A DNA stretch of 64,000 bases from Parcubacteria group bacterium Gr01-1014_8 (GCA_007376385.1 VMGC01000005.1:32001-96000), one strand, 5' to 3'. Numbered from the stretch's first letter, positions 417 through 64,000 are shown. The notes: generated by a model not told the origin, from the sequence alone. Numbers and translations are program-made.

Positions 417-524
417 TTATTTGCGAGCGTTGCGAGTAAAATGCAAAAGAGCACTTTTGCATTCCCGAGCCGAGGAGCAAACACAGGTTCAATACCTCGG
501 AGCAAGCTCCGAGGAACCTTTATT
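417..524 (+). ncRNA. Candidate small structured RNA, repeat copy 1. Order of parts: TTATTT box, GCGAGCGTTGCGAG, hairpin 441-462, CCGAGCCGAGGAGC, terminator-like hairpin 495-514, then UUUAUU.
   Basis: Near-identical copy at 38889-38996 and a diverged copy at 15593-15759 whose changes keep both stems paired (one as a G-U pair). Hairpin plus U-tract at the 3' end. Confidence 0.45.
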
Positions 525-594: not shown

Positions 595-1110
595 ATGTTA
601 CGCCTTTTGACGCAGATGATCCGGACTGGCAAGAAGACCGAACCGGCTCCAATACTGGAGCCAATTGACGAGGTCGGGGAGAACCTCCGCAATGCCATTC
701 ATACGCTCTACGGAGGGCGTATGCTCCGTATCCGCCACGTGGATGCCGGCTCGACAAACGGAGAGGAATTCGAGATGACGGCGCTTGGCAACGCCTACTA
801 CGACATGGAGCGATTCGGACTTTCATTTGTTGCCTCTCCCCGGCACGCTGACATTTTGACCGTATCCGGGCCAGTAACGCGCAATATGGAACACGCGCTC
901 AAGACTGCGTATGAAATGACGCCGAAGCCTCGCATTGTCATCGCAGTCGGAGACGGCGCAATTGACGGAGGAATCTGGAAAGATTCGTACGCAATTGTGG
1001 GAGGGGTGAAGGATGTTATTCCGGTTGACGCCGAAATTCCCGGAGATCCACCGTCTCCGCTTGATCTGCTAAAAGGATTTCTAAATGTGTTGCAAGGCGC
1101 AAGAAAATAG
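595..1110 (+). CDS. NuoB/HycG-like hydrogenase small-subunit homolog in which all four N2 [4Fe-4S] cysteine ligands are replaced.
   Basis: GSCNGCE corresponds to GSTNGEE here, MGACALSGG to VGDGAIDGG, and PGCPP to PGDPP. The rest of the sequence aligns to NuoB/HycG (PKPRIVIAVG..., VIPVD). Confidence 0.8.
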   Translation: MLRLLTQMIRTGKKTEPAPILEPIDEVGENLRNAIHTLYGGRMLRIRHVDAGSTNGEEFEMTALGNAYYDMERFGLSFVASPRHADILTVSGPVTRNMEHALKTAYEMTPKPRIVIAVGDGAIDGGIWKDSYAIVGGVKDVIPVDAEIPGDPPSPLDLLKGFLNVLQGARK

Positions 1111-1115
1111 TTTTT

Positions 1116-3080
1116 ATGGTTGCGTCTTTTTTTGTTGCCTCGCTGATTTTGCCGCTTGTAGCAGGAGTTGCTGCGCTTCTTCTCCTGCGTACAAAAGCGG
1201 GTCACATGCTCACGCAATTGGTTTTTGCTCTCGGCGGCCTAAGCGGTGTCGTTGGCGCAACGTTGTTCTATGCGAGCGATGGAGCGAGCACCGTCGTTTT
1301 TCATACGGCACTCTTTAGTCTTGTTGTCGGGACGCTTTCAGTATTCTTTTTGGGAATTATATCCGTCGGTGTTCTTCTCACATCGTTGTATGCGCTTGAG
1401 GGTCTGCGCAGATACAAAAGCGTCTATTCACTCCCGTGGCTTGCCGTTGCGTCTGCTTTTTTCATATTCGGCATGCAGGCAACGGTCATGGCCTCCTCTG
1501 TTGCGGGTTTTCTCGTTGCGTGGGAGTTGATGTCCGTCGCCGCATATTTCCTCGTTATAGCGGATGGCACTGAAGAATCACTGCATGCAGGCTTCTCGTT
1601 TTTTATCATGGCGCACATCGGGTTCGCGAGTCTTGTCGCAGGATTTCTACTTCTTTCTGCGGGCAATCCCTTTGCAGAGTGGCCGGAAGTAGCGCTCGCC
1701 GCAAAAACCATGACGCCGGCGACGCTCTCCGTCGCGTTCTCGCTTTTATTCATCGGCTTCGGCTCAAAAGCGGGTCTTGCCCCGCTCCATCAGTGGCTGC
1801 CCATGGCGCATCCGCAAGCGCCGAGCCACGCTTCGGCGTTGCTATCCGGCGTCATGTTGAAAGTCGCGCTTTTTGGGTTCATTCAATCGCTGTTCTTGTT
1901 TCCATCGGTTCCCCTATCATGGGGCGTTGTTGTCCTTGTGGTAGGACTCGTGTCGGCTTTCTTCGGCGTTCTGCACGCAGTCGTCGAGAGCGACATGAAA
2001 CGAGTACTCGCATGGAGCAGCATCGAGAACATGGGCCTTATTTTCTCTGGCGTAGGCGCAGCAATGATATTGCGCACGTTGCCGTACGAGGCAGGACCCG
2101 TACTCGCATCATCTATCGCCATTTTCGTTGCGCTCCATATCATCAATCACTTTCTCTTCAAGAGCGGGCTCTTCATGGCTGCGGGCGTTATCGTATCGGA
2201 AGTGCATTCTCGTGACATGGATATCATGGGGGGTTTAGCGCAAAAGTGGCCCATCTTCTCCGGCGTTTTTCTAGCTCTCGCGCTCGCAGCGGCAGCGTTG
2301 CCTCCGTTCGGTACATTCTTTGGCGAGTGGATGTATCTGCAATCTCTCGCACTTGCGCTTGTCGGTCTGCCTTTGCCGCTTTCCGTCGTTGCGGGACTCG
2401 TCCTCGCAGCCGTCGCATTGGTGAGCGGCCTTGCTATCGTTGCGTTCGTAAAAATGTTCTCAAGCGTCTTTTTAGGGAGAGCTCGAAATGAACATGCGGA
2501 ACATGTGGGGATGATGCCAATGTCTCTTATGTGGCCGCCAATGGTGTGCGCGATTCTTTCGATTGTTGCCGGGGTGCTTGCATTTCCTTTTTTTTCATCG
2601 CATTTTATGGATGGCGCGAGCATCATGCAAGATGTCGTTATCGTACAAGGCGCCTCCATGAACGCTTGGATCCTGTGGGCGCTTATCGCGGGTCTTGCGA
2701 TCATAGCGCTTCTTCTCGCGCGTTTTCTTCGCGTGCCGGTTCGCATTACGGATACGTGGGATTGCGGGCAGCCGCTCACGTCGCGAATGGAATATACGGC
2801 AACTGGATTCTCGGCACCGTTCCGCTTTTTCTTCCGTGCGTTCTTAGTATCGCGAAAAGAAATGATCGTTACGCCTATCTCTTCAGAGAATCCGTGGATA
2901 GCGAACCGGCGTCTCGAGTGGAGCATTACCTCAACATGGGAGCGGCTCTTTTATCGCCCCGTCGGGCAGGCATTGCTTCGTTTTGCTGAATACGCGCGCA
3001 AGTTCCAAAGCGGCGTCGTCCAGATGTACCTTTTGTTTGTTGTTATCGCTCTTGTCGGAGCATTCATTTTTGCGCTATGA
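1116..3080 (+). CDS. HyfB/HycC-like (NuoL/MrpA family) antiporter-type membrane subunit.
   Basis: 654 aa polytopic protein with the WLPMAHPQAPSHASALLSGVMLKVALFG motif typical of HycC/HyfB. Confidence 0.8.
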   Translation: MVASFFVASLILPLVAGVAALLLLRTKAGHMLTQLVFALGGLSGVVGATLFYASDGASTVVFHTALFSLVVGTLSVFFLGIISVGVLLTSLYALEGLRRYKSVYSLPWLAVASAFFIFGMQATVMASSVAGFLVAWELMSVAAYFLVIADGTEESLHAGFSFFIMAHIGFASLVAGFLLLSAGNPFAEWPEVALAAKTMTPATLSVAFSLLFIGFGSKAGLAPLHQWLPMAHPQAPSHASALLSGVMLKVALFGFIQSLFLFPSVPLSWGVVVLVVGLVSAFFGVLHAVVESDMKRVLAWSSIENMGLIFSGVGAAMILRTLPYEAGPVLASSIAIFVALHIINHFLFKSGLFMAAGVIVSEVHSRDMDIMGGLAQKWPIFSGVFLALALAAAALPPFGTFFGEWMYLQSLALALVGLPLPLSVVAGLVLAAVALVSGLAIVAFVKMFSSVFLGRARNEHAEHVGMMPMSLMWPPMVCAILSIVAGVLAFPFFSSHFMDGASIMQDVVIVQGASMNAWILWALIAGLAIIALLLARFLRVPVRITDTWDCGQPLTSRMEYTATGFSAPFRFFFRAFLVSRKEMIVTPISSENPWIANRRLEWSITSTWERLFYRPVGQALLRFAEYARKFQSGVVQMYLLFVVIALVGAFIFAL

Positions 3081-3163
3081 CCCCATGAGAGAAACGATCT
3101 AAATTCTTATGAATCACACCAATTGTAACGAGATGCAGTGCTTCGCTCAGGATCATATCTATT

Positions 3164-3180
3164 TTTCTCACGGGGTATGA
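3164..3180 (+). promoter_or_regulatory. Conserved 17-bp intergenic motif, copy 1 (TTTCTCACGGGGTATGA); the ATG of the HycD-like gene is embedded in it.
   Basis: Matches the motif family TTATCTCAYGGGGTATA. Confidence 0.4.
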
Positions 3181-4124
3181 CCGTCACGATACTCATTTTG
3201 CAGTTCTTCTTAGTGCTCGCGGCAGCGCCCGCGACGGTGGGGATCGTGCGTAAAATAAAAGCGCGCTTTCAGAACAGGCGCGGCGCACGCATCACGCTTC
3301 CATACTGGTCGCTCCTTTCGTTGCTTCGAAAAGAAATGACCATCACGCGGCACAGTTCGTGGGTGTTTCGCATCGTTCCGTTCGTGGTCTTTGGAAGCGC
3401 ACTCGCGCTAGCAGCGCTTATTCCTTCTTTTGCTGTAGGAATTCTGGCCGCGAGCATGAGCAACATTTTTCTTGTCGGCGCCGTCGCCGCGCTCGGCTCC
3501 GCGTTCCTTGTTTTTGGCGGCATGGATACCGGAAGCACGTTCGGCAACATGGGCTCCAGCCGCGAGATGACGATAGCCTCATTGATAGAGCCTGCCGTAT
3601 ACGTATCGCTCGCTTCTCTTGCAACGCTCTCCGGTTCGTGGAGTTTGGATGGCATCGCACTATTTTTTGCCGCAAGTAAATGGGTGGAGATAATACTTCC
3701 GGCCTCACTTACGTTAGTGGCCCTCGTCTTTGTGCTGCTCGCAGAAAATGCGCGCTATCCGGTGGATAATCCTGCAACGCACCTTGAGCTCACAATGGTG
3801 CATGAGGCGATGGTCTTAGAATATTCCGGCCCATACCTCGCAATGCTCGAATACGCGTCGTGGATAAAATTGACTGCGATGCTGATGCTCGTGATGAATC
3901 TCGTAGCGCCGTGGGGTATTCTGACTTCTCCATTTGCTCTTGGGGCCACTCTCATCGCGCTCGTTGCATTTGCCATTAAGCTCGGCGTCGGTGCATTCGT
4001 CATTGCGTTCATCGAATCAACGATCGTAAAAATGCGCTTCTATCGAATGCAGGAATACATGTCTCTTGCGCTCATCGTTGCGCTCGGCGGTCTTGCTATT
4101 TCGCTTGTCTCAATTGCCGTATGA
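3177..4124 (+). CDS. HycD/HyfC (NuoH-like) membrane subunit.
   Basis: The N-terminus MTVTILILQFFLVLAAAPATVGIVRKIKARFQNRRG matches the HycD/NuoH start. Start set at the internal ATG at 3177 rather than the track start at 3138. Confidence 0.8.
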   Translation: MTVTILILQFFLVLAAAPATVGIVRKIKARFQNRRGARITLPYWSLLSLLRKEMTITRHSSWVFRIVPFVVFGSALALAALIPSFAVGILAASMSNIFLVGAVAALGSAFLVFGGMDTGSTFGNMGSSREMTIASLIEPAVYVSLASLATLSGSWSLDGIALFFAASKWVEIILPASLTLVALVFVLLAENARYPVDNPATHLELTMVHEAMVLEYSGPYLAMLEYASWIKLTAMLMLVMNLVAPWGILTSPFALGATLIALVAFAIKLGVGAFVIAFIESTIVKMRFYRMQEYMSLALIVALGGLAISLVSIAV

Positions 4125-4774
4125 GTGCGCAGCTTACATTCGACCTCCCGACATTATTTGCATGCGGCATGCTGCTTCTATCGTTGATAATGGTAAGCCG
4201 CATGCGTCTTTCGTCGCTTGTCGGTATTTTCCGTTACCAGAGCGCGCTTCTTGCCATCTATGCGGTCATCCTTGCGATCTCTCATGATGAACCAGAATTG
4301 CTCGCGGTCGCCCTTTTTATTGCACTTGTGAAAGTGGTCCTCATACCAGCGTTTCTCATTCGCGTCGCAAAGCAAAATGGCGTGTCAGAGAGGCTTGATT
4401 CGTATTTGCGTCCGACGACGTCCACATCAGTAGGTTTGGTTGCCATCCTTCTCGCGTTTGCCGGAGCAGAGGCGACATTTGCTACGAGCGCGGGGCTCAT
4501 CATAGTTGCGTGCGTTTTTGCTCTCATTCTGACGGGGCTTATTCTTCTCATTACGCGCAAAGACATGTTCGGGCAGGGAATCGGATTTCTCGTGATGGAG
4601 AACGGCATCTATGCATTCGGGCTCGCTCTTGCTGGCGGAATGCCCATCTTTGTCGAGCTTGCAGTTCTGTTTAACCTTCTTGCGCTCACCGTTCTGATGG
4701 TTCTGTTGTTCCGAGTCGCGCAAAAGGTCCACTCTTCTGTTTCAACCGAGCATTTTAAGCGACTCATCGATTGA
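4121..4774 (+). CDS. HyfE-like small membrane subunit (217 aa).
   Basis: Size, multi-helix hydrophobic profile and position between the HycD-like and HyfF-like genes. 4-nt ATGA overlap with the upstream gene. Confidence 0.6.
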   Translation: MSAQLTFDLPTLFACGMLLLSLIMVSRMRLSSLVGIFRYQSALLAIYAVILAISHDEPELLAVALFIALVKVVLIPAFLIRVAKQNGVSERLDSYLRPTTSTSVGLVAILLAFAGAEATFATSAGLIIVACVFALILTGLILLITRKDMFGQGIGFLVMENGIYAFGLALAGGMPIFVELAVLFNLLALTVLMVLLFRVAQKVHSSVSTEHFKRLID

Positions 4775-4775
4775 T

Positions 4776-6227
4776 ATGACTGTATCTCTGCTCCTCATGG
4801 TTATTCTTGTCGCTGCTGCGATGCCGTATCTCTGTGCCACAACGAAACAGGTGCGTTCGCTCGCGATGATAGGAAGTACGAGTATTTTCCTGCTTTCTCT
4901 CTTTGTCGGGATTCCGGCGCTGTTTGCTCCAGCCGCTGTTACCGGCGCGGGTTTGTGGTACATCGATGCTCTGGGCGGGTTCTTTGTTCTCTTGATCGGA
5001 TTCGTTCAGTGGACAGGGACGCTCGTAAGCATGACGTACATGAAGGAAGAAGAGGCGCACGGGACGGTAACCGCGGCTAAGGTCAAACGATACTTCGTAC
5101 TCTTGCATCTTTTCGTCCTCGCGATGATGCTTGCTGTCGTCTCGAATAACACAGGCATCGTGTGGGTTGCGCTCGAGGGCACGACGCTGGTGACGACACT
5201 CTTGGTCGGTTTTTACGAACGAAAAGAATCTCTTGAGGCTGCCTGGAAATATCTCATTCTGTGCTCATCGGGCATTGCGTTCGGATTCTTGGGAATTCTT
5301 GTCATGTTCTATGCGGCTTCGACGACGGGGGCGGAAGGCGTTATCGGCATGACGTGGTCAGGGTCGGCACTTCTTGAAGCGGCGCTTCCCGTAAGCGTCG
5401 TAAAGATAGCGTTTGTGCTCTTGCTGATAGGGTTTGGCACCAAGGTTGGTCTTGTCCCGATGCACGCCTGGCTCCCGGACGCCCATTCAAGCGCGCCATC
5501 GCCAATTTCTGGCATGCTCTCGGGGGTGCTTCTCAACGCCGCGTTATTGCCGATACTTCGTTTCAAAAATATTGTTGACGGCGTTGCCGCGCCTGGTTGG
5601 ACCGATCAGCTTCTCATCGTATTCGGGGTTCTCTCTATCGCGCTTCCTGCAGCGTTCGTACTTGTTCAGCGCGATTACAAAAGGTTGCTCGCATATTCGA
5701 GCATTGAACACATGGGGCTCATTACGCTGTCGGCAGGACTCGGCGCGATTGGTTCCGTCGCCGCGACAATTCACATTGCGGGTCACGCTCTCGCGAAATC
5801 TGCGCTCTTCTTTGCGGCGGGAAACATCCTCTTGAAATATCACAGCACTAAATTCGAGAATGTCTCGGGGGTTACACGCATATTGCCTTACACAGGAGGG
5901 CTCTTTCTCGTTGCATTTTTGGCGCTTCTCGGCGTTCCGCCTTCACCCTTGTTTGCGAGCGAATACTTTATGGCGGCTGCTGCGATAGGCACGCATCCCT
6001 ACGCCACCGGCGCCGTCTTTCTCGCCCTCACTATCGTATTTGCCGGATTTGTGCGGCTCTTGATGCCGATGTTGTTTGGGGAGAGTCCTGACAGAGGTGG
6101 GCGGGAGAGATGGAACATATCGCACACCGCTATCACGTTGAATATCGTTTTACTTATCGGACTTGGTATTGCTCTCTGGATTGCTCCTGGAGAGGCGATC
6201 ATCCAACGCATTGCAGAAATTATTTAG
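4776..6227 (+). CDS. HyfF/HyfD (NuoN/NuoM-like) antiporter-type membrane subunit.
   Basis: WLPDAHSSAPSPISGMLSGVLLNAALL motif; 483 aa polytopic protein. Confidence 0.8.
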   Translation: MTVSLLLMVILVAAAMPYLCATTKQVRSLAMIGSTSIFLLSLFVGIPALFAPAAVTGAGLWYIDALGGFFVLLIGFVQWTGTLVSMTYMKEEEAHGTVTAAKVKRYFVLLHLFVLAMMLAVVSNNTGIVWVALEGTTLVTTLLVGFYERKESLEAAWKYLILCSSGIAFGFLGILVMFYAASTTGAEGVIGMTWSGSALLEAALPVSVVKIAFVLLLIGFGTKVGLVPMHAWLPDAHSSAPSPISGMLSGVLLNAALLPILRFKNIVDGVAAPGWTDQLLIVFGVLSIALPAAFVLVQRDYKRLLAYSSIEHMGLITLSAGLGAIGSVAATIHIAGHALAKSALFFAAGNILLKYHSTKFENVSGVTRILPYTGGLFLVAFLALLGVPPSPLFASEYFMAAAAIGTHPYATGAVFLALTIVFAGFVRLLMPMLFGESPDRGGRERWNISHTAITLNIVLLIGLGIALWIAPGEAIIQRIAEII

Positions 6228-6231
6228 AAAT

Positions 6232-7752
6232 ATGACCATTCAATCACTCACACAAAGGATCGGGATCGCGGGAAAAGACTTCGTACTAGTTCCTCGTGAT
6301 GACCTGCACCGGCATGCAGAAGTTTGCGTTGAGGCAGGCGCTCCTCTCATGTTCATGTACGCAACAGAAGAGGCGAACGGATTTGTGGTACATGTAGTAT
6401 TTTCCGCAGAAGACGGCTTTCTGACATTGAAGGCGGAGCTGCCGCGCGATGATCCGACGTATCCGTCGCTCACTCGCAGTATCATGGCAGCGCATTGGTA
6501 TGAGCGATTGATGCATGACCAGTTCGGCATAGTTGCAGAGGGGCACCCCGACTGGCGACGACTCATACACCACGAGAATATCCCTGAAGGCACGCATCCG
6601 CTCCGTAAAGATTTTGCGTGGAATACGAAGCTTCCGCATGCGAATGTTCCGTACCCGATGCACGCAGTCACTGGAAAGGGAATTTATGAAGTTCCGGTCG
6701 GGCCGATACACGCAGGAATAATTGAGCCGGGCCACTTTCGTTTCAACGTTCGCGGAGAGAGAATTCTGACGCTCGAAGGAAAACTGTTCTTCAAGCATAA
6801 GGGCGTCGAGAAATTGGTTGAGGGAAAGACACCGGAGGAGGCTTTTCCCTTCATCGAAAGAATTTCTGGCGACATGGTCGCCGGGCATGCACTCGCGTTT
6901 GCGGAAGCTGTTGAAGCTGCATCTGGAGTCGCCATATCAGCGCGTGCGAAACATCTGCGTGTCCTGTGGAGCGAATTGGAGCGAGCAACGGCGCATGTTT
7001 TTGATATGGGGAATATGGGAGGCAACGGCACAGGATTTACATTCATGGCGGCACAAGGCTTTCGCATGGTCGAAGATATGCGTCGTTTGTATCAATCGCT
7101 CGTAGGGCACCGATTCTTGCGAGGCGCTATTGTGCTTGGCGGCGCGCATGATATTTCTGAGGGTGATGTTGAGAAGATCCGTGCCGTGATAGATGATATT
7201 GAGCGAGACATGAAAAAAGTTCTCGCAATTGCGTATGGAAGCGACGGGCTTATGGAGCGGTTTGAAACGACGGGAATTCTTTCACTTGAGGCCGCGAAAG
7301 CATACGGGGCGCGGGGAACGCCAGCGCGGGCGTCAGGGGTTACTCTCGATATACGAACGGGTCATCCCTATGCCGCGTACAAAGAGTTAGGAGTGAGCGT
7401 GGTGACTGAAAAAGGCGGCGATGTCGCGGCACGCTTCAAGGTCCGCGACAGGGAACTCACGGAGTCGTTCCGTCTTATCCGCGAAGTATTGAGAACTCTT
7501 CCGAAAGGCGAGGCGAAAACGAATTCCAATTTCAAACAGGGGAGTGCGCTCGGCGCAGTTGAATCATGGCGCGGCGCTATCATTGACTGGGTGAGGCTTG
7601 ATGCGGAAGGAAGAATTGACCGCTGTGCAATTTCAGACCCATCGTTCTGTAACTGGTCTCTTTTTGGCGAACTTGCGCCTGGCAACATTGTCCCGGACTT
7701 TCCTTTGTGTAATAAGAGTTTGAACCTTTCGTATTCAGGGACGGACCTCTAA
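6232..7752 (+). CDS. Fused NuoC-NuoD / HycE-like large-subunit homolog with both [NiFe] CxxC ligand motifs degenerate.
   Basis: The L1 motif RxCGxCxxxH reads RISGDMVAGH here. The L2 motif DPCxxC reads DPSFCN. Start set at ATG 6232 just after the upstream stop at 6227. Confidence 0.8.
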   Translation: MTIQSLTQRIGIAGKDFVLVPRDDLHRHAEVCVEAGAPLMFMYATEEANGFVVHVVFSAEDGFLTLKAELPRDDPTYPSLTRSIMAAHWYERLMHDQFGIVAEGHPDWRRLIHHENIPEGTHPLRKDFAWNTKLPHANVPYPMHAVTGKGIYEVPVGPIHAGIIEPGHFRFNVRGERILTLEGKLFFKHKGVEKLVEGKTPEEAFPFIERISGDMVAGHALAFAEAVEAASGVAISARAKHLRVLWSELERATAHVFDMGNMGGNGTGFTFMAAQGFRMVEDMRRLYQSLVGHRFLRGAIVLGGAHDISEGDVEKIRAVIDDIERDMKKVLAIAYGSDGLMERFETTGILSLEAAKAYGARGTPARASGVTLDIRTGHPYAAYKELGVSVVTEKGGDVAARFKVRDRELTESFRLIREVLRTLPKGEAKTNSNFKQGSALGAVESWRGAIIDWVRLDAEGRIDRCAISDPSFCNWSLFGELAPGNIVPDFPLCNKSLNLSYSGTDL

Positions 7753-11322: not shown

Positions 11323-12585
11323 TTATCCCAATGAACTGAAGAGGTGTTCGGCAATTCTATCTGCTTGGAGCGTCATTTCGCTACCGTTTGCAAGGTTTTT
11401 AATCGTGTATTTACCGGAGTCGCGTTCTTTTTCGCCAACTGCGATAACGAATGGAACTTTCATTTTATCCGCCTGCCTCACTTGGTCGCCGATACGTTTG
11501 CCTGAGAAATTCACTGCGACCGTGACATCTTCTCGCCTGAGATCCTGAGCGAGTTTGTTGGCGTGTACCAATGCAGATGGTTCGACGACGCAGAGCATGA
11601 GCTCTGTAGCCGGAGCATATTTTGGGAGAAGATTGTGCGTTTCAAGAAAGTCGCGTGCGGTTACGTCTCCCATGGCAAAGCCAACTGCAGGAACCGATTC
11701 GCCTCCAAAAAGCGAAAGCAGATCGTCGTAGCGGCCGCCTCCGAACATGGAGCGTTTGTTCTCGCCTGATGTATCAAAGACCTCGAAAACCATGCCCGTG
11801 TAATAGTCGAATCCGCGGGTTACTGAGGTATCAACGACAGCATTGTTCACGCCGAGAGATTTGAGGGAAGCCATCAATTGCTCTAAATATGCCGTAGACG
11901 TCGTGCGAGCCAAGTGGTCTATCAGCTTCCCGCTGCGCTCTTTGCCCACTAGTTTTTGCAGCAGTTCTTTGAAATCGTCAATTTTGTCGCGGCGATCCAA
12001 GAGGCGGGTAGCCGCAGGACGGAGGTCTTTCTCGATACCGCACTCATTGAACGCGGCGTCGAGGAATCGCCGGTCTGATACGCGTATCTCAAAGTTGCGT
12101 TCGTCCGTTCCGAATGAGCGCATGATGGCATGCGCAAGGGCAATGACCTCCGCATCGGCTTCAATTCCCGCAGCTCCTACGATGTCTGCGTTGAGCTGCC
12201 AGTGTTCTCGGAGGCGTCCTTTTTGCGGACGTTCATATCGAAAGACGTTGGGGACCGAATACCACCTTGCGGGGAGGGAAAGCTCGCGCTTTTTTGCTGC
12301 AACCATGCGTGCGAACGTGGGAGTCATTTCGGGCCGCAAGGTAACTTCTCTATCGCCTCGGTCGGTGAATGTGTATGTCTGCTCATTCACAATTTCTTCC
12401 GATGTTTTGTTCCGGTAGAGCTCCGCCGGCTCTAGAACGGAGGCGTTGTACTCTTCATAGCCGAAAAGTTCGCACATGCGCTCCCAATGCTCAAAAATGT
12501 AGCGCTGGATGAACATGTCCTCGGGGTAGAAATCCCTGACCCCCTTATATGATTCCGTTGAAAGTTTCTTTTTGTCGTCGGCCAT
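11323..12585 (-). CDS. hisS: Histidine--tRNA ligase.
   Basis: Class II aaRS motifs and HisRS-specific N-terminus (GVRDFYPED...). Confidence 0.9.
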   Translation of the reverse strand: MADDKKKLSTESYKGVRDFYPEDMFIQRYIFEHWERMCELFGYEEYNASVLEPAELYRNKTSEEIVNEQTYTFTDRGDREVTLRPEMTPTFARMVAAKKRELSLPARWYSVPNVFRYERPQKGRLREHWQLNADIVGAAGIEADAEVIALAHAIMRSFGTDERNFEIRVSDRRFLDAAFNECGIEKDLRPAATRLLDRRDKIDDFKELLQKLVGKERSGKLIDHLARTTSTAYLEQLMASLKSLGVNNAVVDTSVTRGFDYYTGMVFEVFDTSGENKRSMFGGGRYDDLLSLFGGESVPAVGFAMGDVTARDFLETHNLLPKYAPATELMLCVVEPSALVHANKLAQDLRREDVTVAVNFSGKRIGDQVRQADKMKVPFVIAVGEKERDSGKYTIKNLANGSEMTLQADRIAEHLFSSLG

Positions 12586-15045: not shown

Positions 15046-15582
15046 ATGTCGGTGGGAGATCTTAATTCACTTCTCGCCCTTGGCACGCTCGCCATTCAGA
15101 TAGCCAGTGCGGTTTTGTTGGCGGTGTATTTTTTACCGAATCTTATTCCCGGTGCGTATGAAATACGTGCGTATGTGGGAAAGTGGGGAATTGCATTGGG
15201 ACTCGTTCTCATTCTGACAACAGCAGCGGCGAATCTTTACTACGAATCGTTTGGATTTGAGCCATGCTATTGGTGTTATTGGCAGAGGATTTTTCTGTAC
15301 CCGCAAGCTGTTTTGTTCGGAGTTGCTCTTTGGAAACGTGACATGCAAATTGCCGATCATTCTATTGCGTTATCGATTTTTGGAGCGGGCGTTGCTCTCT
15401 ATCACCACGCACTTCAAATGCTTCCCGGTAGCGGTCTTCCATGCCCGTCTGTAGGTGTCTCCTGCGCCACGCGCATCCTGTTCGAATTCGGCTACATTAC
15501 GTACCCTCTGATGGCGTTTTCGCTGTTTGCGTTTCTTATCGTGTTGATGTTGTTCGTGCGGTCTTCCTATCAGGCAAAATAA
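15046..15582 (+). CDS. DsbB/BdbC-family disulfide bond formation protein.
   Basis: Four-transmembrane-helix protein with PCYWCYWQRI (compare BdbC PCVLCWYQRI) and a second Cys pair in the later periplasmic loop (CPSVGVSC). Confidence 0.65.
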   Translation: MSVGDLNSLLALGTLAIQIASAVLLAVYFLPNLIPGAYEIRAYVGKWGIALGLVLILTTAAANLYYESFGFEPCYWCYWQRIFLYPQAVLFGVALWKRDMQIADHSIALSIFGAGVALYHHALQMLPGSGLPCPSVGVSCATRILFEFGYITYPLMAFSLFAFLIVLMLFVRSSYQAK

Positions 15583-15592
15583 TCTCTGCGAA

Positions 15593-15759
15593 ATTATTGG
15601 CGAGCGTTGCGAGTGAAATGAACGTGTACTCATGTTCATTTCCGAGCCGAGGAGCCAAAATACGGTTAATACCGCGCAGCAAGCTGCGCACGTGTGCGAG
15701 CGAAGCGAGCTCATCAGCAGGTCCAGGGCTTTGCCCTGGGGTTTAATACCGTTTATTTT
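15593..15759 (+). ncRNA. Candidate small structured RNA, repeat copy 2 (diverged, with an extra 3' hairpin and U-tract).
   Basis: Same architecture as 417-524. Stem 1 ATGAACGTG/CATGTTCAT (one G-U pair) and stem 2 GCGCAG/CTGCGC with the conserved CAAG loop. Ends with CCAGGGCTTTGCCCTGG plus TTTATTTT. Confidence 0.4.
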
Positions 15760-16241
15760 CAGCAACCGATCATGAGGCTGCCTCCCGTTTGAATGCGTAT
15801 CATGCCGGGATCTTGTCGTATTGGGGGGCCGGCCTCCAGATACGCACACACTTTCCAGTTGTGGCTTGTTGCGGGGTATACGTTGCCCGTTTCTGTGAAT
15901 ACTGTGTATTCGCACGGGGCAGATGACGATGAAGTGCAGATTGCCGTCGGTCTCGTGGGGTCTTTGTATGCGCTAAGGTCGGGTCCGCTTCCAGCACATG
16001 TATAGGCTGCGTCGCCGGCCGCTGTGCAGCCTGTGAACACTATTGGGCGGCTGTTATCTTCTCTGAGAGCTACGGCATTCGCTATCTGGCGAAGGTCCTG
16101 GATCCGGCGTGAATCGCGACTCTTGATGCGAGCAGAACTCAATGCGACAAACGCGATAGATGCGAGGATCGCAATGATACTCACAACGACAAGAAGTTCG
16201 ATGAGACTGAAGCCGGATTCTTTGGGAGAAGTTCCTCTCAT
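15759..16241 (-). CDS. Type IV pilin / pseudopilin (prepilin N-terminal methylation domain).
   Basis: MRGTSPKESGFSLIELLVVVSIIAILASIA prepilin leader and cleavage motif. Confidence 0.8.
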   Translation of the reverse strand: MRGTSPKESGFSLIELLVVVSIIAILASIAFVALSSARIKSRDSRRIQDLRQIANAVALREDNSRPIVFTGCTAAGDAAYTCAGSGPDLSAYKDPTRPTAICTSSSSAPCEYTVFTETGNVYPATSHNWKVCAYLEAGPPIRQDPGMIRIQTGGSLMIGC

Positions 16242-16300
16242 GATGCATTGAGTACGATTATTGTAGCCTTGTTTAGGTTCGGTACGGCCTGTTTTGTGGA

Positions 16301-16855
16301 CTAGTGCGATTGGTTTTGCGATGCGAATTCCATGAACGTTGCCAGGAATTTCTTCAGCGACGCGATTGTTCTCTCGTCTGTAAGTTCCAAGTTCTCATCG
16401 AATTTCTCCTTTGCTGCCCCAAGATAGAATTCCGGCTGGCCCATGACCTTTGCGTCGAAATAGCCAAGGACGCGGCGTACATCGTATTGCGCAAACGATG
16501 CTCCACGAGGACCAGAGGAAGCACCGAGTATGCCGACGGGTTTTTTATCCCACGACAGCGGGTCGCTCTCCGGCCTCGAACTCCAGTCGAGGAAGTTTTT
16601 TATAGGGCCCGATGGTGTGCGATTAAATTCTGGTACGGCAAGCAAAACTCCATCTGCGGCCTTTATTTTTTCACGAAGCTCAGCAGCCAAAACAGGGAAA
16701 TTCGAGGCTTCAAGGTCTTGATCAAAGACAGGGAGTCCATCAATAGAAACAATTTCAATGTTCACGCCTTCGGGAGCGAGTTTTTTTGCTGCTCGTAGAA
16801 GTGCCGAGTTGTACGAGGCTTTTCGAAGACTGCCGGAAAATGCGACGATGTTCAT
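16301..16855 (-). CDS. NADPH-dependent FMN reductase (flavodoxin-like fold).
   Basis: MNIVAFSGSLRKASYNSALLRAA... typical of the NAD(P)H-dependent FMN reductase family. Confidence 0.75.
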   Translation of the reverse strand: MNIVAFSGSLRKASYNSALLRAAKKLAPEGVNIEIVSIDGLPVFDQDLEASNFPVLAAELREKIKAADGVLLAVPEFNRTPSGPIKNFLDWSSRPESDPLSWDKKPVGILGASSGPRGASFAQYDVRRVLGYFDAKVMGQPEFYLGAAKEKFDENLELTDERTIASLKKFLATFMEFASQNQSH

Positions 16856-18635: not shown

Positions 18636-18737
18636 CGGAAAATTATAGCCCGACGAAGCGAGTGAAGCGAGAGCTTTGTTCTCGTTTCCGAGTAAGCGCA
18701 GATCAAACGAAAACGGCGACTATCTTATGGAGAGTCT

Positions 18738-38723: not shown

Positions 38724-38888
38724 GGTCGTGCATTGTTTTCTGCTAAGCTAAAAAGAACCGCCTTCGCGAAGTATAGAGCGGAAAGATGAAGACTTCATGA
38801 GATTACAGACGAAAACAGGTCCGCATCTCTTACGTTGGGTCTCTGAAAGAGCCATGGCGTGGCTCAATGCAGGCGCAATGTGTGTGAT

Positions 38889-38996
38889 TTATTTGCGAGC
38901 GTTGCGAGTGAAACGCAAAAGAGCACTTTTGCATTTCCGAGCCGAGGAGCAAACACAGGTTCAATACCTCGGAGCAAGCTCCGAGGAACCTTTATT
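38889..38996 (+). ncRNA. Candidate small structured RNA, repeat copy 3.
   Basis: About 96% identical to 417-524 over roughly 105 nt. The 3' hairpin plus TTTATT overlaps the stop codon of the convergent permease gene. Confidence 0.45.
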
Positions 38997-39774
38997 GCTT
39001 AAGACCTAGCCCTGTGCGGATGAAGTACCAATTGGCAGCAATGAGGATAGCCACTAACACTACAAGTATCGAGACTGACATGTAGAGGGAAACGTCAGTA
39101 ATGCCGAGGAATCCGTAGCGGAAACCGTTGATGAGGTAGAAAAGGGGATTTGCGTACGTTATCGCCTGCCACCAATCGGGAAGCGAATGGACCGAGTAGA
39201 AAATACCACCGAGGTAGACGAGTGGTGTCAGGAAGAATGTGGGGACGATGTTGATGCCATCGATCGTTTTCGCATAGATGCCGTTCACGAGTCCTGCGAG
39301 AGCGAAAACGAGTGCGGTGAGGAGGGCGAATCCTAGGATGACGAGGACGCTATGAATGGTGAGCGAGAGGCCAGTGAAAAAGAGTGACACCATAAGCACT
39401 AGTGCGCCGACGAGGATGCCGCGTATCACGCCTCCGCCAACAAAGCCAGCAATAAGAAGCCATGGCGGCGTAGGGGAGACGAGAATTTCATCGATCGAGC
39501 GTGCGAAGAATTTTGACGTAAAGAACATGAATGACGTATTCGCGTATGATGTTGTGACGATAGCGAGCATCACGAGACCGGGAACGACGAATGTCATGTA
39601 ATCGACACCTTGCATGTCACCAATACGGGAGCCAAGCACGGTTCCGAACACGAGAAAGTAGAGAGTGGAAGTGATAACGCTCGGAAGAAATGTCTGGACC
39701 CAAATGCGGAACATGCGGACAATGTCCTTTCGTATCATGGTGTAGAACGCGATCCATTTTTGGTAGGGAGTCAT
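38992..39774 (-). CDS. ABC-2-type transporter permease.
   Basis: 260 aa, six predicted transmembrane helices, ABC-2 family features. Confidence 0.75.
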   Translation of the reverse strand: MTPYQKWIAFYTMIRKDIVRMFRIWVQTFLPSVITSTLYFLVFGTVLGSRIGDMQGVDYMTFVVPGLVMLAIVTTSYANTSFMFFTSKFFARSIDEILVSPTPPWLLIAGFVGGGVIRGILVGALVLMVSLFFTGLSLTIHSVLVILGFALLTALVFALAGLVNGIYAKTIDGINIVPTFFLTPLVYLGGIFYSVHSLPDWWQAITYANPLFYLINGFRYGFLGITDVSLYMSVSILVVLVAILIAANWYFIRTGLGLKQ

Positions 39775-60266: not shown

Positions 60267-60366
60267 ATATGTCTTGTTAGCGAGTAGTGGATGTAACTCT
60301 ACCCTTAGCTTTATTGCGGTGCAACAACCAGAATTTCATAACAAACAGATCTTGGGGGGCAGATTC

Positions 60367-60484
60367 ACCACACGGGTACTTCCATTTCACTAACATCGGG
60401 GTACCGATGAAGTGAAATTGGTCGCACCACACGGGTACTTCCATTTCACTAACATCGGGGTACCGATGAAGTGAAATTGGTCGC
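60367..60484 (+). repeat. Exact tandem duplication of a 59-nt hairpin-forming unit, 95-210 nt upstream of glnA.
   Basis: Unit 60367-60425 repeats exactly at 60426-60484. Each unit contains ATTTCACT...AGTGAAAT around the inner palindrome CATCGGGGTACCGATG. Confidence 0.85.
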
Positions 60485-63426: not shown

Positions 63427-64000
63427 ATAAACCTCCGGCGTTAGCCGGAGTGTACGTTTGAAGGCGAAGCCGTATGCTAAAGCCGTCCGGCAGGACGGCT
63501 TTAGCAATAACCATACGCATGTCATCACACAAACGTACAATACGCACATTATCACACTGCTTTTACGACCTGAAATACCATCTGGTATGGACACCAAAGT
63601 ACCGAGGAAAGGTACTGACAGCACAGAAGGTGAAAGATGAGTTGCGGAGAATCTTCGAGACAATCTGCAAGTGGAAACACTGGGAAGTCATCGAACTGAA
63701 CATTCAAGACGATCACGTACACTTCTGCATCCTCACGACACCGAGAGACTCCATCTCATATACCATGCAAATACTGAAGGGGAAGTCGTCTGCTTGGCTC
63801 AAGAAGAAGATCAAACGGGCACACGGTCTGTACGAAAAAGAATCTCTGTGGGCGAGGGGTTACTTTGTCTCTACGATCGGCATCGACGAGCACCTCATAC
63901 GTCGGTACATCAAGCATCAACACCATCACAATCAAACAGACCAACCAAGTCTGTTTGACAAGCTGCTCTCTTAACAACCGCGGCCGCCCTGCCGGCGTAG
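63427..64000 (+). mobile_element. IS200/IS605-family element (left end with subterminal hairpins plus tnpA); the right end is beyond the window.
   Basis: Hairpins CTCCGGCGTTAGCCGGAG (63433-63450) and AAGCCGTCCGGCAGGACGGCTT (63479-63500) upstream of a Y1 HUH transposase gene. Confidence 0.7.
63519..63974 (+). CDS. tnpA: IS200/IS605 TnpA (Y1 HUH transposase).
   Basis: LKYHLVWTPKYR, DDHVHFCILTTP (HuH motif) and catalytic-Tyr region (RGYFVSTIG). Confidence 0.85.
   Translation: MSSHKRTIRTLSHCFYDLKYHLVWTPKYRGKVLTAQKVKDELRRIFETICKWKHWEVIELNIQDDHVHFCILTTPRDSISYTMQILKGKSSAWLKKKIKRAHGLYEKESLWARGYFVSTIGIDEHLIRRYIKHQHHHNQTDQPSLFDKLLS

Follow-up and report, generated by a model that had tools for sequence, protein, structure and literature searches.

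A TTAY-flanked structured repeat in Parcubacteria and its diverged copy between convergent dsbB-like and pilin genes

The 64,000-nucleotide (nt) stretch of Parcubacteria group bacterium Gr01-1014_8 analysed here (GCA_007376385.1 VMGC01000005.1:32001-96000, one strand; hereafter the window, with positions counted from its first nucleotide) contains a short structured sequence at 15594..15756 on the + strand, in the narrow space between a DsbB-like gene and a convergent pilin gene. A sequence-only reading of this DNA had taken it to be the second of three copies of a small RNA (sRNA)-like element, and the most informative one. This raises the question of what is repeated here: an RNA gene, or something that is itself mobile? 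We find that the sequence belongs to a new family of small mobile structured repeats that is absent from Rfam and occurs in several Parcubacteria/Kaiserbacteria genomes, the relatives of the source genome being Kaiserbacteria. The family is best compared with the palindrome-associated transposable elements (PATEs) of the IS200/IS605 type. The sequence between the dsbB and pilin genes, referred to below as copy 2, is in our judgement probably an old, diverged insertion of such a gene-less element of ~85-165 nt.

The evidence for mobility comes from the boundaries of the copies and from the loci that contain or lack them. Copies 1 and 3 of the window (417..523 and 38889..38995, both on the + strand) are 91-96% identical to each other and to a fifth copy of the same genome, c4, which lies ~3.1 kb past the end of the window (L046 15136-15242, approximately window-equivalent 67137-67243; L numbers denote the loci used for comparison). 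The identity of these three copies stops exactly at TTAT on both sides, and their flanks are unrelated. c4 sits in the 3' end of an RluD-like pseudouridine-synthase gene, and the deposited protein ends in ...REFICERCE*, of which the tail CERCE is derived from the element. In silico deletion of L046 15140-15242 restored the in-frame tail ...REFIAPPPKDFR*, which fits the C-terminal motif F-[TIV]-A-P-L-P-x-D-F that is present in nearly all of the 58 aligned orthologues. c4 is direct evidence of an insertion with base-pair boundaries. Reconstructed in silico, the empty site of the rluD-like gene reads GAATTTATAGCGCC and that between dsbB and the pilin gene reads AATTATTTTCAGC; excision of copy 2 from the latter would leave 17 nt between the two stop codons.

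The comparison of loci points the same way. Three relatives have no element in the interval from dsbB to the FAD-oxidase gene, and the genes there either overlap or have other genes between them. Between thyA and dcd, a diverged copy is found in L050 where the window has a 12-nt spacer. The response-regulator locus contains a TTAC-type copy in both L010 and L058, whereas in the window only a relic of it is left, with copy 3 as an independent insertion 35 nt beyond. This relic of an older TTAC-type copy (38827..38853, + strand, upstream of copy 3) consists of CTCTTAC followed by GGTCTCTGAAAGAGCC, a 16-nt piece of the 3' domain; at the orthologous locus, the L058 copy aligns to it with its 5' junction and 3' part, and one of 300 shuffles scored equally high. 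Independent short-read (Logan) contigs terminate within copies. TTAY is found at the 5' junction of every family copy. At the 3' end, the last base is the same as at the 5' end in most copies: six of the seven long-type copies end in TTAT (L050 has TTCAT), and four of the five short-type copies end in TTAC or GTAC (L041 has TTAG). The short-type copies, which were found in other genomes, start with TTAC and mostly end with it. Taken together, these observations make it very likely that the element moves and inserts at TTAY, and that it is a mobile structured repeat.

How widespread is the family? Within the window, the two conserved blocks GCGAGCGTTGCGAGTGAAA and TCCGAGCCGAGGAGC each have three matches on the + strand (at ~423, 15600 and 38895, and at ~464, 15641 and 38936, respectively), against 0.04 and 0.19 matches expected from dinucleotide shuffles. 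A repeat search of the window recovered them as one family, comprising 417-531, 15594-15708 (65%, ungapped) and 38889-39003 (95%). Copy 1, a compact copy of the long type, lies between the start of a - strand gene and the NuoB-like gene of a hydrogenase-like operon. Copy 3 is 95% identical to it, and its terminal TTA forms the TAA stop codon of a convergent ABC-2 permease gene. Over the first 70-100 nt, copy 2 shares 73-77% identity with copies 1 and 3, in agreement with the roughly 30% of differing positions that had been noted from the sequence. A fourth copy (18643..18728, + strand), located between the start of the FAD-oxidase gene and the end of a VTT/PMM gene, is decayed: it reads TTAT, then GCGAG, a new 11-bp hairpin and CGAG, and finally TTAT, and its stem sequence is wholly new. 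It was scored at 22.4 bits (E 1.4e-4) by covariance model R1, which was not built from that copy; its 46.3 bits with model R2 are circular, as it sits in the seed alignment of R2.

Outside the window, a scan for the two-block pattern identified true relatives in a Parcubacteria metagenome-assembled genome (MAG; L010), a second MAG of the Candidate Phyla Radiation (CPR; L036 and L037), a Hainich groundwater contig (L041) and a JGI metagenome (L044/L045). True loci made up three of the 37 hits in GTDB genomes, three of six in JGI metagenomes and none of two in IMG/VR, the remainder being chance matches in GC-rich DNA. Covariance models added the decayed copy of the window, c4, the diverged copy in L050 and a copy in a Kaiserbacteria genome (L058). 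No further diverged copies were found by a second covariance model, which included helix P1 (see below), in ~300 kb of related DNA. BLAST searches against plasmids and phages and a scan of viral contigs gave no matches to the element. The whole window had no hit in Rfam 15 at gathering thresholds; at E<=10, there was none for copy 2 and the L041 and L044 copies, and copy 1 had only sub-threshold scores of 12.6-14.4 bits. Our literature search yielded no description of an element of this kind from Patescibacteria or Kaiserbacteria.

Each copy is built from the same parts: TTAY, a 5' domain (helix P1, a purine-rich loop and the 12-bp helix P2), a 3' domain that is closed by helix P3 and tolerates inserted hairpins, and a terminal (T)TTAY. 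Copy 2, which is of the long type and has an enlarged 3' domain, runs from TTAT to TTAT and scores 90.8 bits with R2. The fourth base of its 5' junction TTAT (15594..15597) doubles as the first base of P1, and this first pair (4-66 in the family alignment) is U-A in six sequences and C-G in four. The 5' strand of P1, UUGGC (15597..15601), pairs with GCCAA (15654..15658), both in the alignment and in the minimum free energy (MFE) fold. P1 encloses the 5' strand of a large internal loop, GAGCGUUGCGAGU (15602..15614; identical in nine of the 11 family members), the P2 hairpin (15615..15642; 12 bp, 15615-15626 with 15631-15642, loop UACU) and the 3' strand of the internal loop, CGAGCCGAGGA (15643..15653), which is the same in copy 2 and eight other members. 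In a tenth member, c4, this 3' strand has one C-to-U change that retains G16.U55. In the 3' domain, P3 is formed by ACGGU (15662..15666) and ACCGU (15748..15752) in MFE folds. It contains the P4 hairpin GCGCAG-CAAG-CUGCGC (15674..15689), an insert that is missing from copies 1 and 3 (15690..15722), and the P5 hairpin CCAGGGC-UUU-GCCCUGG (15723..15739). The insert carries a third CGAG-N-CGAG module (GCGAGCGAAGCGAGCUC), and homologous inserts are present in L045 (ACGAGCGCGGCGAGUUC) and L050, as are counterparts of P5 with stem sequences that differ from that of copy 2. The 3' junction TTAT (15753-15756) is followed by TTT, which extends to 15759.

Two features had been read differently from the sequence. 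P2 and P4 correspond to the stems that had been recognised there as stem 1 and stem 2, and the conserved blocks had been placed outside them as single-stranded segments. This does not hold. P1 encloses both blocks, so that they are the two strands of the internal loop (GAGCGUUGCGAGN opposite CGAGCCGAGGA); the GAAA/UUUC portions of the blocks lie in stem 1, and the rest forms the loop, which is closed by the covarying 5-bp P1. Of the added 3' hairpin with its U-tract, the hairpin is real and is P5, but the U-rich tail follows P3 and not this hairpin. Similarly, the CAAG tetraloop of P4 is common to the three window copies but not to the family: it is UU in L045 and, in c4, CUUG, the reverse complement of CAAG.

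To assess the fold, we aligned the family with MAFFT, using 11 sequences for covariation in P1, P1b and P2 and the eight conserved copies for a first count in P2. Over the 20 pairs of P1, P1b and P2, 14 showed double changes and 94% of the cells in the alignment were paired. None of 500 shuffles was as good, and sliding the partner strand lowered the paired fraction to 28-55%. For P2 by itself, double changes were present in eight of 12 pairs among the eight conserved copies, with 95% of cells paired, and in ten of 12 pairs in the 11-sequence alignment. Both sides of P1 (positions 4-8 with 62-66) change in four of its five pairs across the family, which has the variants UUUGC/GCAAA, UUGGC/GCCAA, CUGGC/GUCAG, CGGAC/GUUCG and CUGGC/GCCAG. 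P3 is AGGUU/AACCU in copies 1 and 3, AAACCGG/CCGGUUU in L036/L037 and AAAUCGGC/GCCGAUUU in L058. What P3 encloses also varies: one hairpin in copies 1, 3 and c4, three in copy 2, L045 and L050, two inserted hairpins in L058, and a tetraloop in L036 and L037. Unguided MFE folds of copy 2, L045 and L058 recovered P1, P2 and P3.

Copy 2 proved to be the informative copy that it had been claimed to be. Relative to copies 1 and 3, it carries compensatory double changes in every helix (one in P1, three in P2 together with one A-U to G.U change, two in P3 and two in P4), and zero changes in the loop strands. The two in P4 are double substitutions relative to CCUCGGAG-CAAG-CUCCGAGG of copies 1 and 3. 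Thus the claim that both stems stay paired is borne out fully for stem 1, while stem 2 keeps six of eight pairs and gains two double substitutions. An algorithmic alignment that placed the substitutions outside the stems would have spoken against the fold; the MAFFT alignment places them within the stems, as compensatory pairs. Compensation in all helices shows that selection acts on a folded single strand.

The internal loop has features of its own. GCGAG beside P2 is unchanged in 11 of 11 family members, and the GCGAG/CGAGC combination persists even in decayed copies. On sequence grounds, these strands may pair as C-G, G.A, A.G and G-C, which fits a tandem sheared G.A arrangement, and the unguided folds of copy 2, L045 and L058 also give GC..G/C..GC pairs beside P2. 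By eye, CC-GAG-GA-GC opposite GC-GA-G matches the k-turn consensus, with the closing pair broken in L058.

The position of copy 2 between converging genes was confirmed by domain searches. The DsbB-family gene (15046..15582, + strand; PF02600, E 2e-9) ends 11 nt ahead of copy 2, and a prepilin-type (N_methyl) gene (15759..16241, - strand; PF07963, E 1e-8) converges on its 3' end, its stop codon (TCA on the + strand) beginning at 15759. Similar arrangements recur in the family: nine of 12 copies have their 3' end at or close to the end of a convergent gene, whose stop codon is the terminal TTA of the element in copy 3, L037 and L041. In all long-type copies the closing stem is GC-rich and leads into UUUAU(U), whereas short-type copies end in UUUAC without a U-run. 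A terminator scan called copies 1 and 3 terminator-like on the + strand. The earlier suggestion that copy 2 may double as a terminator for dsbB and the pilin gene is worth stating as a model, and we consider it plausible. A transcript from dsbB would pass the 5' domain and then reach P3 plus UUUAUUUU, which would act as an intrinsic terminator, and the converging pilin transcript would be blocked from the other side by the same GC-rich hairpins. In L041 (860-1025), the copy begins 3 nt past the discriminator base of tRNA-Gly(CCC), and the convergent gene that uses its terminal TTA as a stop appears by sequence to encode an HxlR-type regulator-like protein.

How might such an element spread? 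We tentatively propose, at somewhat less than even chances, that it works like a PATE, with an IS200/IS605-like HUH (Y1) transposase acting in trans to move it as single-stranded DNA. Such an enzyme would move the element by 'peel-and-paste', inserting it 3' of a TTAY motif, and the subterminal hairpins together with the conserved loop would be the structure that it recognises. Trans-mobilised, gene-less PATE copies are documented, as are TTTAT and TTCAT as transposon-adjacent motifs of such elements (PMC10055086). The element has no terminal inverted repeats: its 5' end UUGCGAGCG and the reverse complement of its 3' end AGGUUCCUCGG are unrelated. Its left linker, from TTAY to the foot of P2, is 17 nt, compared with 9 nt on the right from the foot of P4 to the end (4 nt from the foot of P3). 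Members of the IS200/IS605 family move as single strands to sites 3' of a 4-5-nt motif, and they too have the longer linker on the left: 19 nt against 10 nt on the right in IS608, and 15-16 nt against 8 nt as a general rule (PMC3597680). All five copies within 82 kb of the source genome are on the G-rich strand. On the same strand, the window contains an intact IS200-type Y1 (HUH) transposase gene (63474..63974, + strand; PF01797, E 2e-34; NF033573, 127 bits) with HVH and GYF motifs, located just after the amtB terminator at a locus that continues in L046 11417-12050. It is a candidate for the class of enzyme that mobilises the element.

Several observations weigh against a PATE-like insertion with a terminator role. 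The flanking hairpins of the resident IS200 (left CTCCGGC-GTTA-GCCGGAG, right TGCCGGC-GTA-GCCGGCA; CCGGC-GTWA-GCCGG in common) are unlike those of the element, and the covariance model scores the IS200 region at ~7 bits. As the hairpins differ from the element ends, no cognate transposase is identified, and we reject the specific idea that the element is a PATE of this resident IS200, which is on record at a single locus, so that its own ends are not definable by comparison. P2 is unlike P3 and P4 in sequence, whereas the two ends of IS608 resemble each other. The orientation bias is weak elsewhere: at the other loci, GC skew on the element strand is positive in five cases, about zero in two and negative in one. 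Removal of the body plus one TTAT restores the rluD-like open reading frame (ORF), but as the element itself also ends in TTAY, the motif at both ends fits a 4-bp target duplication by an enzyme of another kind equally well. The counts of G.U (11) versus A.C (6) in the helices do not identify which strand folds (p = 0.33). A simple terminator scan did not call the copy 2 site, where P3 is followed by UUUAUUUU. Finally, across genera the loop is better conserved than the protein genes beside the element, and the helices that surround it all covary. An invariant loop within covarying helices is the pattern expected of a functional RNA, and its conservation could mean a function at the RNA level instead of recognition by a transposase. 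As for guide/cleavage complementarity of the IS608 type, long-type copies have AAUA 5' of the P4 foot, which complements UUAU position by position, but nothing equivalent is present in TTAC-type copies, and the match may be a coincidence.

The comparison with known systems shows where the likeness to PATEs lies and where it ends. The element is small, has no ORF and no terminal inverted repeats, and has structured subterminal hairpins. It has a fixed left-junction motif, TTAT or TTAC, where the ISGst elements have TTTAT and TTCAT. IS608 has TTAC as its left-junction motif. The left linker is longer than the right one, a Y1 gene is present in the same genome, and removal restores the target. 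In Geobacillus stearothermophilus, ~50 PATEs are moved in trans by TnpA (PMC10055086). Unlike PATEs, the element has two hairpins that resemble neither each other nor the resident IS200 ends, its best-conserved part is a large internal loop and not the hairpins, the same TTAY stands at both ends, and it comes with no identified cognate transposase or autonomous parent. Because of these mismatches in an otherwise PATE-like architecture, we liken the element to a PATE but do not class it as one. Repetitive extragenic palindromic (REP) sequences and bacterial interspersed mosaic elements (BIMEs) are also multi-copy, intergenic structured repeats that often lie at gene ends and affect transcript ends, and their spread is attributed to a domesticated Y1 HUH enzyme, the REP-associated tyrosine transposase (RAYT), that acts on folded single strands (PMC3333891, PMC8266576). 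However, REPs are single palindromes of 20-40 nt with a 5' GTAG-type motif in clustered inverted pairs, whereas the element is a two-domain unit of 105-165 nt that occurs singly. The Y1 protein of the window scores 127 bits as IS200 and 35 bits with REP_Tyr_transpos (RAYT), for which the cut-off is 80.

bcr1 of the Bacillus cereus group, the Rickettsia palindromic elements and Correia/ERIC sequences are repeats of ~100-150 nt that fold as RNA and use short AT-rich targets (TTTAT for bcr1). They sometimes lie within ORFs and can provide terminators or processing sites. Most of them differ from the element in having terminal inverted repeats or in lacking a conserved internal loop, and they show no sequence similarity to it (no Rfam, plasmid or phage match). 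To our knowledge, none is known from the CPR. Lastly, the element resembles an Hfq-type sRNA in its length of ~110 nt, with a structured 5' domain, a linker and a terminal GC-rich hairpin with a U-rich tail. It differs in having no promoter, in its precise mobile-element boundaries, in its insertion into a coding sequence, and in a 'seed' that is enclosed by helices.

This resemblance is what makes stand-alone, trans-acting sRNA genes an obvious alternative. Each copy would then have its own promoter, a 3' end formed by a hairpin and U-tract, and purine-rich blocks that bind targets or a protein. The strongly covarying two-domain fold, the terminator-like 3' ends of copies 1 and 3 and the invariance of the loop sequences across genera would all be expected of such genes, as would the presence, in the window, L010 and L058 (three of five genomes), of a copy that lies upstream of one and the same OmpR-type regulator operon and diverges from it. 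On the other side, the window copy beside the regulator is a new insertion next to a relic and not an orthologue, and two other regulator loci have no copy. No sigma-70-like promoter was found upstream of window copies 1-3; the upstream sequences of eight copies are unrelated, similarity beginning abruptly at TTAY; several copies lie just 8-28 nt from the start codon of a neighbour, and one lies 3 nt after a tRNA. The supposed seed blocks are enclosed by P1 and P2, and c4 is inserted within a coding region. The element is probably not a stand-alone sRNA gene, and we think that this explanation is unlikely to be correct: the folded single strand under selection is what survives of the sRNA-like description, while the sharp TTAT ends, the missing promoter, the c4 insertion, the empty sites and the decayed copies speak against a gene of its own. 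Alternatively, Parcubacteria might have a new class of structured non-coding RNA whose core is the invariant loop, for instance a scaffold for a protein or nuclease that is used in trans and spread by the element; the copy beside the OmpR-type two-component operon may then be a functional locus. We regard this as doubtful too. A further possibility is that the mobile element is retained for an RNA role in cis, as a portable two-way terminator or 3'-end protector whose loop is a protein-binding platform (k-turn-like or tandem G.A). There is overlap with the mobile-element explanation, the sole difference being the target of selection. Nine of 12 copies abut a convergent gene end and three supply its stop codon, all long-type copies have the GC-rich closing stem and UUUAU(U), and on paper the loop would fit either motif. 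Yet short-type copies have UUUAC ends without a U-run, relatives have overlapping convergent genes and no element, and the closing pair of the proposed k-turn is broken in L058, and we give such a role a low probability.

The remaining alternatives concern the mode of transposition or the coding capacity of the element. Mobilisation by a cut-and-paste (DDE) transposase, with duplication of a 4-bp TTAY target as in a conventional miniature transposon, would explain TTAY on both sides of most copies and the restoration of the interrupted gene by precise removal of one TTAT plus the body. We consider it improbable: the element has no terminal inverted repeats, its covarying stems indicate folding of a single strand, which a DDE enzyme does not need, and no DDE transposase was found among the Pfam-scanned or precomputed ORFs of the window, several long ones of which have no Pfam match. 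Even less probable is that the element is a gene-less IS200/IS605-type element carrying an omega-RNA guide scaffold for a TnpB or IscB nuclease acting in trans. PATEs often encode omega-RNAs that are acted on in trans (PMC10055086), and the element is structured and ends at a motif resembling a transposon-adjacent motif. However, neither TnpB nor IscB turned up in the 82 kb examined, known scaffolds are longer than the element, Rfam has no match to it, and its terminator-like 3' stem would halt transcription ahead of a guide derived from the flank. That the copies encode a small protein (ORF ..ASVASEM....FPSRGA..IPRSKLR..) deserves next to no weight. One frame is open through window copies 1-3 and the stem-2 differences are synonymous in it, but the stem-1 differences are non-synonymous and yet compensatory (QKSTFA versus NVYSCS), copy 3 has no ATG, there is no evident ribosome-binding site, and, with the conserved CCGAG block as reference, the L050 copy is in a shifted frame. 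This shift between homologous copies, together with the non-synonymous stem-1 changes, effectively refutes a peptide gene.

Some further features were noted in the course of this analysis. The operon directly downstream of copy 1 (595-7752) resembles a membrane-bound group-4 [NiFe]-hydrogenase or Mrp-type complex, with NuoB-like, NuoL/antiporter-like, NuoH-like and NuoC/D-like genes. On the other side of copy 1, a gene call on the - strand (92-505; L062 8977-9390) runs into the copy, and its N-terminus is probably over-extended. In L050, a spurious 76-amino acid 'protein' has been called through the element copy (16134-16364), and a repeat array upstream of the FAD-oxidase gene (12200-12340; AAGTATCAA / TTGATACTT) is unrelated to the element. 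A perfect tandem duplication at 60366-60483, ~95 nt upstream of glnA-amtB, has a 59-nt unit, each copy of which is a long hairpin (CCAUUUCACU...AGUGAAAUUGG); an Rfam search at E<=10 returned only noise for it.

Small mobile repeats have hardly been described in the CPR, whose ~1-Mb genomes are thought to be streamlined. The family described here misleads gene callers, as three deposited or called ORFs read into copies, and it breaks short-read assemblies at its copies. It also holds a warning for genome scanning: strong covariation and a terminator-like tail do not by themselves make an sRNA gene. In the genomes of these uncultivated bacteria, the element remodels gene ends, having replaced the C-terminus of a pseudouridine synthase and given stop codons to convergent genes. 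Its conserved loop and covarying helices provide a testable target, which may lead either to an unrecognised single-strand transposase system or to a new RNA-protein module.

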